From contig JAZGJJ010000114.1 of NCBI GenBank assembly GCA_036482575.1, forward strand, positions 1-33,079: a DNA stretch of 33,079 nt, in the 5' to 3' direction. Under the pieces are notes generated by a model, which searched no databases, had not been told where the DNA came from, and saw only the letters and a list, made by a program, of their open reading frames with translations. This document shows, in pieces, positions 2,898 to 9,665 of the stretch. This DNA is from Thermodesulfobacteriota bacterium. GTDB taxonomy: Bacteria > Desulfobacterota > GWC2-55-46 > JAUVFY01. Made by a program: the position numbers and the translations under genes. Numbering within the stretch: the first letter of the stretch is position 1; each line of letters begins with the position of its first letter.

Positions 2898-3959
2898 CTA
2901 CTTCCCGCTCAAAAGCGCCTGTTCCGAAGGGGCCAGCTTGATCGAGAGCCCGGCCTTCCCGCCGCCGCCCGAAATGAGCTTTGCGGTATCGACCATCCCG
3001 AGATTATGCTTGGCGACCTCCGTAAACCAGACGAGCCCCGACCCGCCCGCGGCTATGTCCACGGGCTTTCCCGAGGCCTTGGGAAGGTCTATCTCAAGAA
3101 AGCTCTTGCTCTTCGTGTCGAACCTCCCTATCCTCCCCCCCAGCGAATCACAGTACCAGAGCATTCCCTTCCGGTCGATTGCCAACCCTTCGGGGACCCT
3201 TTTCCCGGGCATATCGAACTCCTTAAAACTCCCCTTCGCCCCCTTAACCCCTTTCTCCAGGTCAAAGCGGACTATCTTATGGCTATTCCTTGCCCCGAAC
3301 CACAGGTAGCCGTCTCCGTCGGCCACGAGCTCCCCTGGTATGGCAAAGGGCGGCGAGATGGTAATCTCGGTTATCTTCCCGGTTTCCGGCTCCAGGCGCG
3401 CAATCTTATTCGCCTGCGACTCCACGAACCAGACCTCCCCCGAGTCCAGGGCCACGATCCCTACGGGCTGGCTCTGCTTGGTGGGGATGGAAAATTCCTT
3501 TATTTTAGAGGTCTTGGGGTCGAGCATGCCTATCTTATTCGCCATGAACTCGGTAAACCAGACCCTGCCATGTCCGTCGATTGCTATCTTATAGGCCTGG
3601 GATTTGGGTGTGGGTATCTCGACCTCCTCGAACTCGCCCGTTTTCGGGTCAAAAGAGCCTATCTGGTTCGCGTCCTGCTCGACGAACCAGATCCTGCCGT
3701 CCGGACCTATGGCCAGGTCTATCGGCACGCTCGAGGATGTGGGAATTTCGAACTCTTTGAAGACCGAAATTGAAGGCTGGAAGCGCACGAGCTTGTTGGC
3801 CCTGGCCTCCAGGAACCAGACGTTGCCCGATGGGTCCTCCGCCACGGCAACCGGGAAGGAGCGGGGGCTTGGGGCCGGATGCAACTCCACGCCGGAGCCC
3901 GCGAAGGAAGGGACCGCGAATGTCAGTATGAATAGCGTAATTAGCGGAAGGTTTCTCAT
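2898..3959 (-). CDS. Secreted seven-bladed beta-propeller, Vgb / streptogramin-lyase-like repeat family (COG4257-like)
   Basis: Signal peptide MRNLPLITLFILTFAVPSFA. Seven repeats of the G.(V/I)WF.E...NKIG..DP type (GNVWFLE, GRIWFVE, GRVWFTE, GEVWFVE, GYLWFGA, GMLWYCD, GLVWFTE). Confidence 0.85.
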   Translation of the reverse strand: MRNLPLITLFILTFAVPSFAGSGVELHPAPSPRSFPVAVAEDPSGNVWFLEARANKLVRFQPSISVFKEFEIPTSSSVPIDLAIGPDGRIWFVEQDANQIGSFDPKTGEFEEVEIPTPKSQAYKIAIDGHGRVWFTEFMANKIGMLDPKTSKIKEFSIPTKQSQPVGIVALDSGEVWFVESQANKIARLEPETGKITEITISPPFAIPGELVADGDGYLWFGARNSHKIVRFDLEKGVKGAKGSFKEFDMPGKRVPEGLAIDRKGMLWYCDSLGGRIGRFDTKSKSFLEIDLPKASGKPVDIAAGGSGLVWFTEVAKHNLGMVDTAKLISGGGGKAGLSIKLAPSEQALLSGK

Positions 3960-3965
3960 ATCAGC

Positions 3966-5207
3966 CTACTTCTGTGTCCTGCGGATAATATACCACAAAG
4001 CCGCCGCGAATAGAACGAAAACCACGATTGCGGCCGCCGCCTTGCCCGAGCCTCCGCCCCCTCCGCCCTCGCCGCCCTTAGCCTCCTCCGCAGGGGGAGG
4101 AGTATCCACCATCGCCGGGCCGGTATCCTCTGCCGGGGGCTCCTCCAGGGTCGTCTCTTCGACTGCCGGGACGAGCATCAAGATACTGTTGGCGTCCCTG
4201 TCGGACTCGGTAAGCCAGACCCTGCCGCGAGGGTCTACGGCTATGCCGCTCGGGAGGCTCCTGGGGGTGGGGATATCGTACTCCCTGAAGGTCGCGCTCC
4301 GGGGGTCGAAGCTGCCCACCTTGTTCCCCCTGTTCTCCACAAACCAGATAAGGCCGTCGGCACCCACGGCAAGGGCCACCGGCACAGAGGACACCTTGGG
4401 GATGGTCGCCTCGTTGAACTCCCCGGTGGCCGGGTCTAACATACCGATCTTATTGCCGTTCATCTCGACGAACCACACGCGGTCGTCGCTGTCGACGATA
4501 AGGTCCGCGGGGTTCACAAAGGGGTGCTGGATGAGGTATTCGGTCATCGAGCCGGCGGCCAGGTCGAGCTTTCCGATCTTATTGCCAACGGATTCGGCGA
4601 ACCAGACGACCCCGTTCGAATCCACGCTTATACCGTTAGGCTGGCTGTCCGGGGTGATGACGGCGTACTCCTCGAACTTCCCCTCCTTGAAGCGCCCGAT
4701 CTTATTGGCGTTCCTCTCGGTAAACCATACCGCGCCGTCCGGGGCCACGGCGATCTTATACGGCTCGGCCGCGGGGGTTGGGACCTTGAAGGTCTCCGTC
4801 TTGCCGGAGGCCGGAGATATGCGCCCTATGGAGTTCACCGCGGAGGAGACGAGCGTGAACCAGATCGTCCCGTCCGGGGCCGCGGTTATGTCCGCCGGGC
4901 TCGCGCCAGCGGGCAGGTCGAACTCCGTAAACTCCTCTTTTTCCGGGTCGAAGAGCCCTATCCTGTGCGTACTCTGCTCGGTGAACCAGATACGTCCCTC
5001 GCCGTCCGAGACTATGCCCAGGGGGTGGCTGAAGGGAGTAGGCAGGGGGTAGCCTTCCATTGTCGCACCGGCCACACCACCGTCGGATGCGGACGCACCG
5101 GGGAGGTGGAGGACCAGCACTATGGCCGCCGATATCAAACACGCCCTCATCACCAGGCGCGCCCTCATCGTGAGGTGGAATATGCCGTAAAACGGGGTTC
5201 TTAACAA
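3966..5207 (-). CDS. Vgb-like seven-bladed beta-propeller with Pro/Glu/Gly-rich linker and C-terminal transmembrane anchor
   Basis: Seven WF(T/V/A)E blades, then ...EEPPAEDTGPAMVDTPPPAEEAKGGEGGGGGGSGK plus the hydrophobic helix AAAAIVVFVLFAAALWYII-RRTQK. The start is ambiguous: TTG 5207, ATG 5168 or ATG 5150 (MRACLISAAIVLVLHLPGASA looks like the signal peptide). Confidence 0.85.
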   Translation of the reverse strand: MLRTPFYGIFHLTMRARLVMRACLISAAIVLVLHLPGASASDGGVAGATMEGYPLPTPFSHPLGIVSDGEGRIWFTEQSTHRIGLFDPEKEEFTEFDLPAGASPADITAAPDGTIWFTLVSSAVNSIGRISPASGKTETFKVPTPAAEPYKIAVAPDGAVWFTERNANKIGRFKEGKFEEYAVITPDSQPNGISVDSNGVVWFAESVGNKIGKLDLAAGSMTEYLIQHPFVNPADLIVDSDDRVWFVEMNGNKIGMLDPATGEFNEATIPKVSSVPVALAVGADGLIWFVENRGNKVGSFDPRSATFREYDIPTPRSLPSGIAVDPRGRVWLTESDRDANSILMLVPAVEETTLEEPPAEDTGPAMVDTPPPAEEAKGGEGGGGGGSGKAAAAIVVFVLFAAALWYIIRRTQK

Positions 5208-5214
5208 GAGAATG

Positions 5215-6180
5215 TCACCATGTAAAGGTAGGTTCGTAGTAGTGGCGCAGCTGCCAGTTGGCGTCCTTGTAGGACTGGGCCGCCCCGCCTATGGCGGCCT
5301 GGCCTTCGGTATCGACCTTGCCCGCCCTGAACTTACCGACATCTATCTGCCTCTGCCTCTCGACCCTGTAGTACTCGCCGACGTCCATGGGCGGCAGGTA
5401 CTGTCTCAGCCCGTAAGCCGGGGTGTGGCAGGCGATGCAGCCGTTGCCCTTGGCCGCGTAGCCGCTCGCGTAAATGCCCTGCAAGAGCAGGCAGAAGATC
5501 CCCACCGGAAGAGAGACGGCGAGAGCCCACTTCAAAACCCCCTTCTTGAGCCTGATCGCCTGCGGGACTACGAACACCGCCGCCAGGAGAATGAGCGCGG
5601 CTACGACGGCGATCGTACCGGACGTCTCGCCATCCTCTCCCAGGGTGGAAAAGTCGGCCCTGTAGAGGCTGTAGACGAATATACCGTAGACCAGGACAGA
5701 AAGGGCTATATTAACGCCCTTCCAGACACCCCCCCTGTCCGCGAGCCGTCCCCCTTTCTTGAATATAAAGGGCACGAGCACAAGGAACGTAAGGACCAGG
5801 GCCGGGATGAAAAAAGTGCCGAGAGAGAGCCACTTGACCGAATCGCCCGTAAGGTACCAGAACGGCTGGAGAAGCAGGAAGAAGTACCACTCCGGGGAGG
5901 GCACGTACATGCCCTCGTCCGGTAAGGCCATGTTGAAGTCCACGGGCACGCGGAAGAAGAAGGCCAGCGTCATCGCGATAAGCACGACCCCGCCCGCCAC
6001 AAGGAGGCCCTTTACGAAGTGGCGCGGCCAGTACTTATGGAACTCCTGGGGATACGGCGGCGCGTACCTGGGGTCGTTCACCTTCTCCTCTTCAGGCACC
6101 CCGGTTACCCCCGTTTCTTCAGCCGCCCCGGTTACCCCCTCTTCTTCAGGCACCCCGGTTGCCCCCTCTTCTTCAGCCAC
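5215..6180 (-). CDS. Cytochrome b C-terminal / b6f subunit-IV-like membrane protein fused to a C-terminal mono-haem c domain
   Basis: PEWY Qo-site motif (VPSPEWYFFLLLQPF), about five hydrophobic helices, then CIACH. The acidic N-terminus is encoded by a 27-nt tandem repeat. GTG start 1 nt after the upstream TGA. Confidence 0.88.
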   Translation of the reverse strand: MAEEEGATGVPEEEGVTGAAEETGVTGVPEEEKVNDPRYAPPYPQEFHKYWPRHFVKGLLVAGGVVLIAMTLAFFFRVPVDFNMALPDEGMYVPSPEWYFFLLLQPFWYLTGDSVKWLSLGTFFIPALVLTFLVLVPFIFKKGGRLADRGGVWKGVNIALSVLVYGIFVYSLYRADFSTLGEDGETSGTIAVVAALILLAAVFVVPQAIRLKKGVLKWALAVSLPVGIFCLLLQGIYASGYAAKGNGCIACHTPAYGLRQYLPPMDVGEYYRVERQRQIDVGKFRAGKVDTEGQAAIGGAAQSYKDANWQLRHYYEPTFTW

Positions 6181-6198
6181 CTCAGTTACCCCCCTTGA
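6091..6198. repeat. 27-nt tandem repeat, about 4 copies (period 27, units beginning at 6091, 6118, 6145, 6172)
   Basis: The 'ttcag' landmarks are exactly 27 nt apart. The repeat encodes E-E-(E/T)-G-(V/A)-T-G-(V/A)-(P/A). The last, degenerate copy spans the stop of 6182-6667 and the GTG start of 5215-6180. Confidence 0.85.
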
Positions 6199-6667
6199 AC
6201 TCGCACTTGCACAGATCTTTCCTTATGTATGTTACGAGATTCTGTATCTCGGTATCGCTGAAAGAGGTGCCCCAGTCCGGCATGTTCTCCGAAAGGCCGG
6301 CGGACTTGCCGCCTTTCTTTATGAGGTTGAAGAGGAACTCGTCGGTGCGTTTCCCGATAATGGACTTGTCCGTAAGGTTGCGGGGTTTTACCTCGAAACT
6401 CTCGGCAAGCGGGCCGTCGCCCTTTCCCTCGAAGCCGTGGCAGGGTACGCAGTTTCCCTGGAAGTTGCCGGCCCCGGACTGCATGTCACCCCCCCAGACA
6501 CCCCGGCTTACGGCCTTGGCGTCCTTCTCACTCATATCCACGGGGTTTTCCTCCGCAAGGACGGGGAGGCCGAAAAAGACGCCTGTAAGGACGGTTACGA
6601 CCGCGCACACATGCAAGAACTTTATTTCCTTTATTTCCATTATTTCCTTTATTCCCATTCTTCCCAT
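6182..6667 (-). CDS. Membrane-anchored or periplasmic mono-haem cytochrome c (class I) with C-terminal LCKC motif
   Basis: CVPCHG, GDGPLA, PRNLT, NMPDWG, ...DLCKCEFKGGN. Start set to ATG 6667 (GGGAGG 7 nt upstream) rather than the track's TTG 6673. Confidence 0.85.
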   Translation of the reverse strand: MGRMGIKEIMEIKEIKFLHVCAVVTVLTGVFFGLPVLAEENPVDMSEKDAKAVSRGVWGGDMQSGAGNFQGNCVPCHGFEGKGDGPLAESFEVKPRNLTDKSIIGKRTDEFLFNLIKKGGKSAGLSENMPDWGTSFSDTEIQNLVTYIRKDLCKCEFKGGN

Positions 6668-6692
6668 TCCCAAACCTCCCGGTATCTGCCCC

Positions 6693-7325
6693 TTAAAGCG
6701 GGCCTGATATGCCGTGGCGCTTCACCATCCTGAAGTGGAAGGCCAGCACTACGATAGTTATAAACGGAAGCAGCCACACGTGTATGGCGTAGCTCCTGCC
6801 TACGGTAAACGCCTCGAGTATGGGGCCCTTCAGGGCCTCCCCGATAATGGGCCAGGTCCCTATGTAGTCGGTCCAGATAACGAGCGTCCAGTAGCCCCTC
6901 CAGTCCCAGGGGAGGATGGTACCGGTGATGAGGAAGAGCGTCACGACGAGGAGCATCATCACCCCGGAGAGCCAGTTGAGCTCCCTGGGCTTTCTGAATG
7001 CCTTGTTGTAGAATACCGAGAAGAGGTGTGTCAGGAGAGTGGCCATGAGCAGCGTGGCCACCCAGCGGTGCAGGCTCCTCGTGAACGAACCGAGCGGCAC
7101 CTCGTTGGTCATATAGATTACGCTCTCGAACGCGTTCTCCGGCCTCGCCACGTAGAAGAACATCATGAAGAAGCCGCTCAGGAGCTGCAGGAGTATCAGC
7201 GTAAGGGAGATGCCTCCGAAGCAGTAAAAGAAGTTAACGTGGTTCGGGATGGGAAGGTCCCTCTTCCTCGCCCTCCAACTCTTAAAGCCGGTTCTTTCCT
7301 CAAGCCAGTCCGTCAGTCCCGCCAT
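6693..7325 (-). CDS. petB: Cytochrome b6-type protein (four-helix N-terminal cytochrome b)
   Basis: NFFYCFGGISL retains the Cys that binds haem ci in b6f. Also SLHRWVATLLMATLLTHLF (helix B His pair), KPRELNW, and IHVWLLPF...AFHFRMVKRHGISGPL (helix D His pair with the b6-type C-terminus). Confidence 0.93.
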   Translation of the reverse strand: MAGLTDWLEERTGFKSWRARKRDLPIPNHVNFFYCFGGISLTLILLQLLSGFFMMFFYVARPENAFESVIYMTNEVPLGSFTRSLHRWVATLLMATLLTHLFSVFYNKAFRKPRELNWLSGVMMLLVVTLFLITGTILPWDWRGYWTLVIWTDYIGTWPIIGEALKGPILEAFTVGRSYAIHVWLLPFITIVVLAFHFRMVKRHGISGPL

Positions 7326-7421: not shown

Positions 7422-7856
7422 TTACGAGGCGTACATGGAAGGGGTCTCATCGTACGTCTCGCCCGTGAAGTCTATCTTCCAGCTGTTCGACTCCTCGTCC
7501 ATCTCGAGATTTATGTCGGTCTGCGTTATGAAATAATCGTTGAACATCGAGGCTACCCTGTACTCTATGGTCACGACCGCTACGCCGTCTTCTACGGTGC
7601 TCCCGATTATCTTGACGTCCATGCCCTTGGGGTACTCCTTGACCATGTTCTTGAATATGTCTTCGTGCATCTCATAGTGCTTCTTGCTTATAAGCCTGTA
7701 TGCCTCGCCGAGCGTGGTGGTCCCGCCCTCCTCTACGTAGGCGTAGAACCTGGCAACCACTTCCTCGGGCGTCTCGGTGGGCTCTACGCCCCCCTTGCCG
7801 CAGGATACGACGGAGAGGGCCGCTATGAGCAGTATCGGAAAAAAACTCTTCAGCAA
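7422..7856 (-). CDS. Small lipoprotein, NTF2-like / DUF4878-like
   Basis: Lipobox LSVVS-C after a hydrophobic leader. TTG start with GAGGA SD. The family call is from overall resemblance only. Confidence 0.7.
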   Translation of the reverse strand: MLKSFFPILLIAALSVVSCGKGGVEPTETPEEVVARFYAYVEEGGTTTLGEAYRLISKKHYEMHEDIFKNMVKEYPKGMDVKIIGSTVEDGVAVVTIEYRVASMFNDYFITQTDINLEMDEESNSWKIDFTGETYDETPSMYAS

Positions 7857-7872: not shown

Positions 7873-7920
7873 TAAAAAAAATGTGTCCCGGCCGTTCAAC
7901 GGGAACGACCGGGACACATT
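7873..7920 (-). terminator. Strong rho-independent terminator after the NosZ-like gene
   Basis: Perfect 12-bp stem AATGTGTCCCGG (7880-7891) / CCGGGACACATT (7909-7920). The loop itself can pair (CGTTC/GAACG). A T-run follows on the minus strand (A-run 7874-7881 on plus). Confidence 0.85.
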
Positions 7921-7952: not shown

Positions 7953-9665
7953 TTAGAACCGCTCTACGCGGGCCGGAGCCGTGATCACCCCTGGTTCAAC
8001 CAGTTCTCTATGCTGCTGGGCTTCCTCGTAGTCACCGGTTACCAGGTTGGCCTGGCCCTTGGGACCGTCCACGAAGAACGTAGCCCTCATCTCCAGATGC
8101 AGCGGGCCGCAGAAGTGCTGGCAGAATATCTCGTACTCGCCGGCATAGTCCGCGACGAACTCGCTCATGATCGACATGCCCCTGTTGGCCGTGAGGTTCG
8201 TCCTCAGGCCATACGGACCGTAGATGGTGAAGCCCATCTGTACGTCCGGGTTCTTGGTGATACCCGCGGCCTTGTCGATGTTGGTGACGATTATCCTCAC
8301 CTTGTCGCCCTTGTTGACCCTTATCTGCCTGGGTACGTAGCCGTAGCTGAAGGCCTTGACGTGGACTTCCTTCACGCCGCCCTTCTCGACTATACCGGGC
8401 TTCCCCTTGTCCCTGGGAAGTATGGTGACCTTCGCGCTACTGCGGTGGGACGGATGGACCTCGGTGATGGGCTTCTTTATCAAGTTGACCGCCTGCCCCA
8501 TGTCCCACTGCTTGATCTTGCTGGCGAAGATGACCTTGGCGTTGTGGGGCTCGCCGTCGACAGGTATTATCCTGAGCGTCCTGCCGTAGGTCGGGCTCTT
8601 CTCGTCCACGTCCAGCATCTCGTGGTTCACGGGCCAACGGATGCCCGTGGGGCTCCACAGCCCTGTGGAGAACTTGTTCAGGGCAAAGACCTTGGTGTCG
8701 TCGGCGCTTATGGCGATGTGCCCGATCCTGTAGTGAATCGGGAACTCGTCGGCCACCGCGAGCTTCTCGAGGTCTATCTTGACGACGGCGTCCGCGACGA
8801 AGCAACTCGTGTAGGAATACCTGCCATCGCTCCTGAAGACGTTGTGGAGCGGACCGGCGCCCGCCGGTATGACCTTCTTAACCGCCAGCTTGTCCACGTC
8901 GATTATGGTTACCGTCGCGGAGAGCTTGTCGGCGACCTGTACGTACCTTCCGGTCGGAGAGACGTTCGTGCCGTGGGGGTTCTTACCAACCGGTATTTCC
9001 TTTATGAGCTTGAAGGGGTTGGTGGAGAAGACACCCACTGTGGAGTGGTAGTAGTTGCCTGAGAATACCATCTCCTTCCTGCCGGGCTTGCTGACGTCGA
9101 GGTAGTCCGGGGCGCTGGGCGCCGGGCCCCAGTCGATGATCTGGGCCTTGCCGGTCGCTATCTCGATCTTGGCCATCTTACCGGTATACTCGCCGGTGCC
9201 GTAGAGGAACTTGCCGTCCTGGGACATCGATATGTGATGTACCCCGAACGGGAACGGCAGGCCTATCAACCTCTCGAGCGTTCCGAGCTGCAGGTTGATG
9301 ACGCCGATGGTGTTGGAGCCCTTGTCGTTGACGTACATATACCTGCCGTCGGGCTTGAGGTTCGAACCGCCGGCGTTGGTCGGAGCGCTGAACAGGTTCT
9401 CGTGAAGGTCCACACCCACCGGTATATGACGGTAGGTCCTCATGCTTGGGACACCGATTACAGCCACCGCGCCGTCGAGGCCGCCAGCGTTATAGAGAAG
9501 CTGGTCGTCCTTCAGCGGAGCATCGTTGGGGCTCTTTTCGGTAACGTGCCAGTCCCTCGCATCCTTCTTTGCGGCAAAGGTTGCATCGGGCGCACCCGCG
9601 AAAACCACGAGCGCTATGGCTGCTGACAATAGACTTATCTTAGTTACTCGCACGTTTCTAGTCAC
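7953..9665 (-). CDS. nosZ: Divergent nitrous-oxide-reductase (NosZ)-like protein: Sec signal, beta-propeller, C-terminal CuA cupredoxin domain
   Basis: The C-terminus IVTNIDKAAG...DVQMGFTI...YEIFCQHFCGPLHLEM carries C-x3-C-x3-H-x2-M (nt 8088-8123) and parallels the NosZ TNID...HGF...C.WFC..LH.EM region. Propeller motifs VHHISMSQDGK, GKNPHGTNVSPTGRY...KLSATVTIID, GAGPLHNVF and IHYRIGH resemble NosZ CuZ-ligand blades. No twin-arginine in the leader. GTG 9665 abuts the SD, so GTG 9653 is a plausible alternative start. Confidence 0.75.
   Translation of the reverse strand: MTRNVRVTKISLLSAAIALVVFAGAPDATFAAKKDARDWHVTEKSPNDAPLKDDQLLYNAGGLDGAVAVIGVPSMRTYRHIPVGVDLHENLFSAPTNAGGSNLKPDGRYMYVNDKGSNTIGVINLQLGTLERLIGLPFPFGVHHISMSQDGKFLYGTGEYTGKMAKIEIATGKAQIIDWGPAPSAPDYLDVSKPGRKEMVFSGNYYHSTVGVFSTNPFKLIKEIPVGKNPHGTNVSPTGRYVQVADKLSATVTIIDVDKLAVKKVIPAGAGPLHNVFRSDGRYSYTSCFVADAVVKIDLEKLAVADEFPIHYRIGHIAISADDTKVFALNKFSTGLWSPTGIRWPVNHEMLDVDEKSPTYGRTLRIIPVDGEPHNAKVIFASKIKQWDMGQAVNLIKKPITEVHPSHRSSAKVTILPRDKGKPGIVEKGGVKEVHVKAFSYGYVPRQIRVNKGDKVRIIVTNIDKAAGITKNPDVQMGFTIYGPYGLRTNLTANRGMSIMSEFVADYAGEYEIFCQHFCGPLHLEMRATFFVDGPKGQANLVTGDYEEAQQHRELVEPGVITAPARVERF

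Follow-up and report, generated by a model that had tools for sequence, protein, structure and literature searches.

The stretch of DNA analysed here (33,079 nt; hereafter, the window) is contig JAZGJJ010000114.1 of a Thermodesulfobacteriota genome assembly (GCA_036482575.1). Its reverse strand encodes two consecutive proteins with the fold of the streptogramin lyase Vgb, which we call P1 and P2 and which lie 2.7 kb downstream of the gene for L-NosZ, the lactonase-type N2O reductase of clade III. The window L-NosZ (7953–9665, on the reverse strand like all window genes described below) scored 695.9 bits with the NCBIfam model NF052460, for which the cut-off is 700; it was 66–80% identical to the L-NosZ of related clusters, and its CuA motif was conserved. 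P1 spans positions 3966–5207 when read as the longest frame, which begins at TTG 5207 (413 aa), and P2 spans positions 2898–3959 (353 aa).

P1 is composed of a predicted Sec signal peptide, a seven-bladed propeller, a linker and a C-terminal transmembrane (TM) anchor. The signal peptide, as read from the sequence, is MRACLISAAIVLVLHLPGASA (5088–5150; cleavage between ASA and SD). The propeller domain (4170–5060) is strongly acidic, with an isoelectric point (pI) of 4.6 and a net charge of −16, and is followed by a disordered Pro/Glu/Gly linker of 43 aa (4041–4169), a TM helix of 19 residues (3984–4040) and a basic tail, RRTQK (3969–3983). P1 is a type-I membrane protein, with a periplasmic propeller, a flexible linker, a single C-terminal helix and the basic tail inside. 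We also considered a sorting signal of the GlyGly-CTERM/PEP-CTERM type. The tail was taken as a plain anchor because NCBIfam gave no match to such a signal and because the residues preceding the helix vary among orthologues. P2, a soluble periplasmic protein, starts with a typical signal peptide, read as MRNLPLITLFILTFAVPSFA (3900–3959), and continues with a propeller (2985–3890) and a 28-aa tail. The gap between P1 and P2 is exactly 6 nt, as stated in the first-pass annotation of this DNA, which had been made from the sequence alone. The 7-nt gap that it gave between the preceding subunit-IV gene and P1 holds only if TTG 5207 is the true start. GAGGG precedes ATG 5150, and it is from this ATG that the clean signal peptide is read; translation more likely begins at ATG 5150 or ATG 5168, which would bring the gap to 46–64 nt.

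Both proteins matched the Pfam family PF24684 (Vgb_lyase), with E-values of 3.5e-92 for P1 and 5.5e-62 for P2 (308.8 and 209.6 bits; cut-off 50), and each contained seven W[FLY]xx and seven N-K-I-G-type motifs. AlphaFold2 (AF2) models, built from alignments of 38 and 34 orthologues, respectively, showed 28 strands forming seven four-stranded blades in each protein, with predicted local distance difference test scores (pLDDT) of 88.7 and 87.9. In the model of P1, the linker had a pLDDT below 50–60 and the C-terminus was helical. The top Foldseek matches for P1 and P2 were the Vgb structures 2z2n, 2z2o, 2z2p and 2qc5 (template-modelling score, on the target, 0.91–0.94; root-mean-square deviation 1.5–1.8 Å). 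PF08450 (SGL) also gave matches of 52.6 and 68 bits, over stretches covered by a far stronger Vgb match; PF08450 propellers are six-bladed and have a divalent-metal site at their centre; the models of P1 and P2 are seven-bladed. The earlier description of two exported, paralogous, seven-bladed propellers of the Vgb type, the first carrying a Pro/Glu/Gly linker and a C-terminal TM helix, was thus borne out by the profile matches, the motif counts, the models, the Foldseek matches and the located segments.

The closest homologues of P1 (49–52% identity) were found mainly in metagenome-assembled genomes (MAGs) of Nitrospirota, Nitrospinota and ‘Deltaproteobacteria’, within the same type of cluster. 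The distribution of the pair was followed over 77 L-NosZ loci (one genome per species), the six-frame open reading frames of which were searched with the window proteins; the labels L005 to L089 denote individual loci of other genomes. A tandem pair directly downstream of L-nosZ, with a first propeller of about 400–440 aa and a second one of about 335–360 aa, was present in ‘Deltaproteobacteria’, Nitrospirota, Alpha- and Gammaproteobacteria, and Magnetococcales. In Betaproteobacteria, P1, P2 and a cytochrome gene form an operon situated 8–10 kb from L-nosZ on the opposite strand. When the pair was missing from the fetched locus of an L-NosZ genome, an adjacent pair was found elsewhere in the genome in 16 cases out of 18. 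The co-occurrence with the NosZ-like gene that had been proposed as a check was accordingly found, as a linkage, in ‘Deltaproteobacteria’, Nitrospirota, and Alpha-, Beta-, Gamma- and Zetaproteobacteria, and the pair, far from being confined to one genome, was present across several phyla.

The association was also striking when whole phyla were compared. Among 301 genomes of the window's phylum, the tandem pair was found in all seven that contain L-NosZ and in none of the 294 others, four of which had a single strong gene of the Vgb family. For Nitrospirota (251 genomes), the corresponding counts were 6/6 and 1/245, the lone exception lying on a contig of 7.2 kb that is cut off 330 bp upstream of P1. 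Taken together, the pair was present in 13/13 L-NosZ genomes vs 1/539 others (Fisher p = 2e-25). At four loci (L006, L018, L019 and L077) the pair was present though cytochrome b6 and subunit IV were absent, and it is because of this persistence that we consider the pair to track L-NosZ rather than the b6 module; it accompanies L-NosZ no less constantly than that module does. The proposal that the propellers are partners of the cytochrome/NosZ-like operon therefore stands as far as the NosZ-like system is concerned, and not for the b6/subunit-IV genes.

To compare P1 and P2 with Vgb, residues 17–297 of the latter, as given in the HMMER output, were aligned with them blade for blade, with the numbering of the 2z2n alignment. 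The identity was 34% for P1 and 31% for P2. In Vgb, a cytoplasmic enzyme, the residues that bind Mg2+ and act in catalysis are presumably H228, E268, H270 (and E284), in blades 6–7. The first three are replaced by V277, L318 and S320 in P1 and by E257, K298 and V300 in P2, while the alignment column of E284 was ambiguous. As a set, H228/E268/H270 was kept by 0/30 position-1 and 0/37 position-2 orthologues, in which the active-site positions were variable. The role of H270 is indicated by the title of PDB entry 2z2p (‘catalytically inactive H270A’), and PMC8916777 describes conserved polar residues in blades 6–7 of Vgb that bind the substrate and Mg2+. The NCBIfam models for Vgb(A) and Vgb(B), which have a cut-off of 600 bits, gave only 218.6 and 177.7 bits with P1, and 144.1 and 145.8 bits with P2. 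Furthermore, Vgb is a single domain with no export signal or anchor, whereas both P1 and P2 have a signal peptide and P1 has a TM helix.

A PF24684 match, 31–34% identity and a nearly identical fold, with its seven blades and WFTE...NKIG repeat (compare S. aureus Vgb, 2Z2N/2Z2O/2Z2P, and S. cohnii Vgb, 2QC5), are what could be invoked to see P1 and P2 as genuine streptogramin B (virginiamycin B) lyases, i.e. resistance genes placed by chance in this operon. The chance that this is so appears negligible, given the replaced catalytic residues, the low NCBIfam scores, the export or membrane tethering and the strict co-inheritance with L-NosZ: unlike Vgb, P1 and P2 form an obligatory paralogous pair within an N2O-reductase cluster. 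As far as sequence can show, a role as antibiotic lyase is excluded, because the catalytic residues are lost, the Vgb scores are low and the proteins are exported. This agrees with the earlier view that they are not antibiotic lyases. In short, P1 and P2 are exported propellers other than lyases, conserved as a pair that is specific to L-NosZ systems, with one of the two tethered to the membrane.

In a maximum-likelihood tree, position-1 and position-2 proteins formed separate clans (support 97/83 and 100/99, respectively), apart from other Vgb-like proteins. P1 of the window fell in the first clan and P2 in the second, both grouping with the proteins of L005, L006 and L077, and the internal topologies of the two clans mirrored each other. 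P1 and P2 are therefore products of an ancient duplication, older than the spread of the cluster, and have been inherited together with L-nosZ. Their order was constant, and the stop codon of P1 often overlapped or abutted the start of P2. Most P1 orthologues had an N-terminal hydrophobic segment. The C-terminal TM helix and basic tail were present in 27/29 position-1 orthologues (the exceptions being L006 and L077), with a linker of variable length and sequence, while position-2 orthologues had a signal peptide only and no further TM helix in any of them.

No His, Cys or Met was conserved in at least 90% of the 30–38 orthologues of either family. The conserved residues were the W, F, P, N, G, E, S and T of the repeat motif; the propeller of P1 has no Cys, and P2 has a single, unconserved one. 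The suggestion of a metal site or a catalytic role, made when the sequence was first annotated, is without support, and roles as copper chaperone or as a substitute for the Rieske protein were both rejected for this lack of conserved His, Cys or Met. The Rieske features, namely CxH...CxxH ligands for a 2Fe-2S cluster and an N-terminal TM anchor, were found in neither protein.

In L063 (13694–16108), one open frame of 805 aa runs through P1, with its TM helix kept, and P2, with its signal-like segment kept, a topology that fits a hairpin. It was not retained as a clean Rosetta-stone fusion, on account of these two retained segments and of a possible internal start; it may be either a natural fusion with a hairpin of two TM segments or a pair of genes that lack a stop codon between them. 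Double-Vgb proteins of 665–720 aa (P0003, P0008) scored well as candidates for a fused pair and were rejected since their gene contexts are unrelated. A Vicinamibacterales MAG carries, in an unrelated cluster (L089:7244–17222), genes for a fusion of a cupredoxin with a double Vgb (767 aa), a double Vgb of 712 aa, a Vgb protein of 614 aa, a cyclase and a cytochrome c. Other propellers of the Vgb family are therefore also wired to periplasmic redox proteins.

Between L-nosZ and P1, the window contains genes for a small lipoprotein (7422–7856, 144 aa), a cytochrome b6-type subunit (6693–7325, PF00033), a plain monohaem cytochrome c (6182–6673, 163 aa) and the subunit-IV-like membrane protein that adjoins P1 upstream (5215–6180), which has a PEWY motif and a C-terminal CxxCH and gave no Pfam match. 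The lipoprotein is conserved in the cluster, and the slot of the monohaem cytochrome is occupied in close relatives by a fusion of a NosD-like beta-helix with cytochrome c. A terminator-like hairpin (7880–7920), with an 18-bp stem (10 G-C) and a T-run, lies between the stop of L-nosZ (7953) and the start of the lipoprotein gene (7856); it resembles an intrinsic terminator or attenuator, by which the expression of L-nosZ would be set apart from that of the accessory genes.

After P2 come genes for a dihaem cytochrome c (2083–2784; pI about 10), two monohaem cytochromes c that are conserved in the cluster (1651–2022, 123 aa; 625–1566, 313 aa) and a membrane-anchored monohaem cytochrome (3–569, 189 aa), which runs off the end of the contig. 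The 113-nt spacer that separates P2 from these genes (2785–2897) contains GC-rich inverted repeats and, noticed by eye and unlisted in a consensus scan, a TTGACA-17-TATACA promoter-like site. Because of these elements, the cytochrome genes after P2 may form a separate transcription unit. The 189-aa cytochrome gave no Pfam match; its CxxCH and YCxRCGPP motifs are invariant, and M86 and a C-terminal domain are conserved (orthologues in L005–L083). Across phyla, its gene is the one most constantly linked to P1-P2, and it is this gene that makes up the three-gene operon with them in Betaproteobacteria.

The family of clade III L-NosZ was published in 2025 (He et al., Nature 646:152, as cited in PMC13477213), and its clusters are described as lacking nosDFYL and as containing b-type cytochromes and ABC transporters (PMC13685413, PMC13477213). 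The window is similar to them in having L-NosZ, the lipoprotein, b-type and several c-type cytochromes and in lacking nosDFYL in the vicinity; the ABC genes found in relatives would fall beyond the end of its contig. The propeller pair is a difference, as accessory propellers are unmentioned in the clade III literature searched (PMC13477213, PMC13685413), though the original description by He et al. may already show them. Literature searches for a link between propellers or Vgb and nosZ gave nothing relevant. The earlier statement that such propellers are not known in nos systems consequently stands for clades I and II only and fails for clade III, since this cluster type has been published. 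The window is a further case of that type; its propeller pair is genuine, of ancient origin and closely tied to L-NosZ. The only match to the NosD family in the window's genome was a DUF1565 beta-helix protein; its gene, which lies beside those for PGM and RNase J, was rejected as the NosD of the cluster because of this unrelated context.

Because the pair travels with L-NosZ across many bacterial groups, P1 and P2 are probably helper subunits of this enzyme. As for what they do, we tentatively favour, as the best reading though one slightly less likely than not, a docking role: as an accessory to clade III clusters, they would form a heterodimer in the periplasm, tethered to the membrane and without catalytic activity, to which L-NosZ and/or its cytochromes bind. 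That P1 and P2 would associate is inferred from their constant order, the overlap of the P1 stop with the P2 start, the mirrored trees, a partial correlation of 0.60 and the joint frame of L063. The heterodimer would have no cofactor of its own and would be tethered to the membrane through P1. Its acidic surface (the median pI of P1 propeller orthologues was 5.07) would serve as a docking scaffold that holds the basic L-NosZ (pI 9.06) and/or basic c-type cytochrome donors, such as the dihaem cytochrome (cytc233, pI about 10) and the 313-aa cytochrome (pI 9.0), close to the electron-donating module of the membrane. The donors held would include the membrane-anchored CxxCH/CxRC cytochrome, and the same platform might also serve in the assembly of the enzyme.

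Cofactor-less seven-bladed propeller subunits are exemplified by the heavy chain of methylamine dehydrogenase, the beta subunit of quinohaemoprotein amine dehydrogenase and the beta subunit of hydrazine synthase. Like the proposed scaffold, they are periplasmic structural partners of a catalytic subunit and of c-type cytochromes encoded in the same operon. They belong, however, to other propeller families, with no sequence relationship to P1 and P2, are not tethered and do not form a paralogous pair, so that the analogy is functional only.

Several points weigh against the docking scaffold. The mirror-tree correlations (for the pairwise distances of P1, highest with those of L-NosZ, r = 0.88, and of P2, r = 0.87; P1-P2 partial correlation controlled for L-NosZ, 0.60, the highest among cluster proteins) are, like the charge complementarity, weak and confounded by shared phylogeny. 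In both families, the loops of the top face were less variable than those of the bottom face (about 1.6–1.7 vs 2.0–2.25 bits), which speaks for the scaffold, but this effect is partly due to the repeat motif itself. P2 has conserved acids on its top face (D81, D96 and E257), and E257, which is found in 30/37 orthologues at the position of H228 in Vgb, leaves room for a divalent-cation site. The coupling of P2 to TlpA-like and CcdA genes in Nitrospirota and the NosD-like beta-helix fused to cytochrome c ahead of P1 in the closest relatives both point to maturation. Finally, the sampled L-NosZ loci all belong to the Gram-negative branch, and experimentally validated L-NosZ systems are known from Gram-positive bacteria.

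A role in maturation is the main rival to docking. On this view, the pair would act in the periplasm as a chaperone or a platform for assembly, to which apo-L-NosZ, once exported by the Sec route, is held during the construction of CuA and CuZ; it would thereby replace part of NosDFYL. We regard this as rather unlikely, yet a series of observations favours it: nosDFYL is missing from clade III clusters (PMC13685413, PMC13477213), and the sole NosD-family protein of the window's genome, as mentioned above, stands in an unrelated context; the strong terminator-like hairpin after L-nosZ precedes accessory genes, as in classical nosZ/nosDFYL layouts; genes similar to nosF and nosY, of the ABC type, end the clusters of relatives; and P1 and P2 have evolved about three times faster than the enzyme itself. 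In Nitrospirota (L007:12321–13746, and also L008 and L009), P2 overlaps by 4 nt a gene for a TlpA-like thioredoxin (AhpC-TSA/Redoxin), which is followed by one for CcdA/DsbD_TM. These genes link the pair to the supply of periplasmic thiol reductant; the linkage is restricted to Nitrospirota, which counts against a general role of this kind, as does the fact that the flanking genes mostly encode electron carriers. The NosD-like::cytochrome c fusion stands ahead of P1 in L005, L006, L010 and L077, and its N-terminus matched the NosD beta-helix family PF05048 (64.6 bits) and PF13229 (L005:7978–9312, L006:8639–9967; also L010, L016, L077 and L078). Since some relatives carry it in addition to P1-P2, the pair is not simply a replacement for NosD. 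In clades I and II, NosD and NosL, which act with NosFY in the assembly of CuZ, resemble P1 and P2 in being periplasmic accessory proteins encoded beside nosZ, NosL also being membrane-tethered. In contrast, NosD is a beta-helix (P1 and P2 gave no match with PF05048 in the Pfam/NCBIfam profile search) and NosL a lipoprotein with Cu(I) ligands, whereas P1 and P2 are propellers. With no conserved His, Met or Cys as ligands for copper or sulfur, the pair would be limited to holding a client and could deliver neither element. In a more elaborate version, which we find quite unlikely, P1-P2 and the membrane cytochrome with the CxxCH and YCxRCGPP motifs would be the core of a new machinery for the assembly or activation of L-NosZ, functionally replacing NosDFYL/NosR: the propeller heterodimer would clamp apo- or inactive L-NosZ at the membrane, and the cytochrome/CxxC protein and the ABC system would supply electrons, copper or sulfur.

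It is improbable that P1-P2 are instead a structural subunit of a Rieske-less quinol oxidase made of cytochrome b6 and subunit IV-haem c, with the TM helix of P1 in place of the Rieske anchor. P1 directly follows the subunit-IV gene in the window, the two genes overlap in L005, and P1 has lost its TM helix in two clusters without b6/subunit IV, those of L006 and L077. Yet P1 still bears this helix in L018, L019 and the Betaproteobacteria, whose clusters have no b6/subunit IV, neither protein has Fe-S or other redox-ligand motifs, and the C-terminal anchor of P1 is opposite to the Rieske topology. The occurrence of the pair without the b6 module speaks against an obligate role in the b6 complex. 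Decidedly improbable, too, is that P1 and P2 are active periplasmic enzymes with another chemistry, e.g. a Ca2+- or Mg2+-dependent hydrolase or lyase acting on a small molecule tied to N2O respiration. The Vgb, SGL and NHL superfamilies of propellers are rich in metal-dependent enzymes, and this would fit with the SGL matches (52–68 bits), the less variable top-face loops, the three acids of P2 and the fusion of other Vgb-family proteins to a cupredoxin beside a cytochrome c gene in L089. Neither family has, however, an invariant polar constellation beyond the repeat motif, the positions of the Vgb active site vary among orthologues, and the fast evolution and the pairing of two paralogues suit a scaffold better.

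In soils, groundwater and sediments, N2O reductases of clade III are abundant, and none of the classical nos helper genes accompanies them; PMC13685413 raises the question of how they acquire electrons and their CuA and CuZ centres. Few genes accompany L-NosZ as faithfully as the pair, whose presence is more constant than that of the cytochrome b6 module already mentioned in the literature. Knock-outs, co-expression and structural studies aimed at functional heterologous L-NosZ should therefore give the pair priority. It offers a concrete handle on the wiring or assembly of these consumers of a greenhouse gas. The annotation ‘virginiamycin B lyase’ is probably wrong in databases for the members of the pair and should not be transferred, as resistome surveys of environmental metagenomes would miscount genes of the P1/P2 type.

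The betaproteobacterial arrangement was observed with additional genes in a Gallionella MAG (L050:13024–18521), where a Usp/PCP_red protein, a radical SAM-SPASM protein with PCP_red repeats and a flavin amine oxidase are encoded between L-nosZ and the P1-P2-cytochrome operon. Upstream of L-nosZ, the same locus encodes a dihaem cytochrome c fused to a haem domain similar to that of ethylbenzene dehydrogenase.

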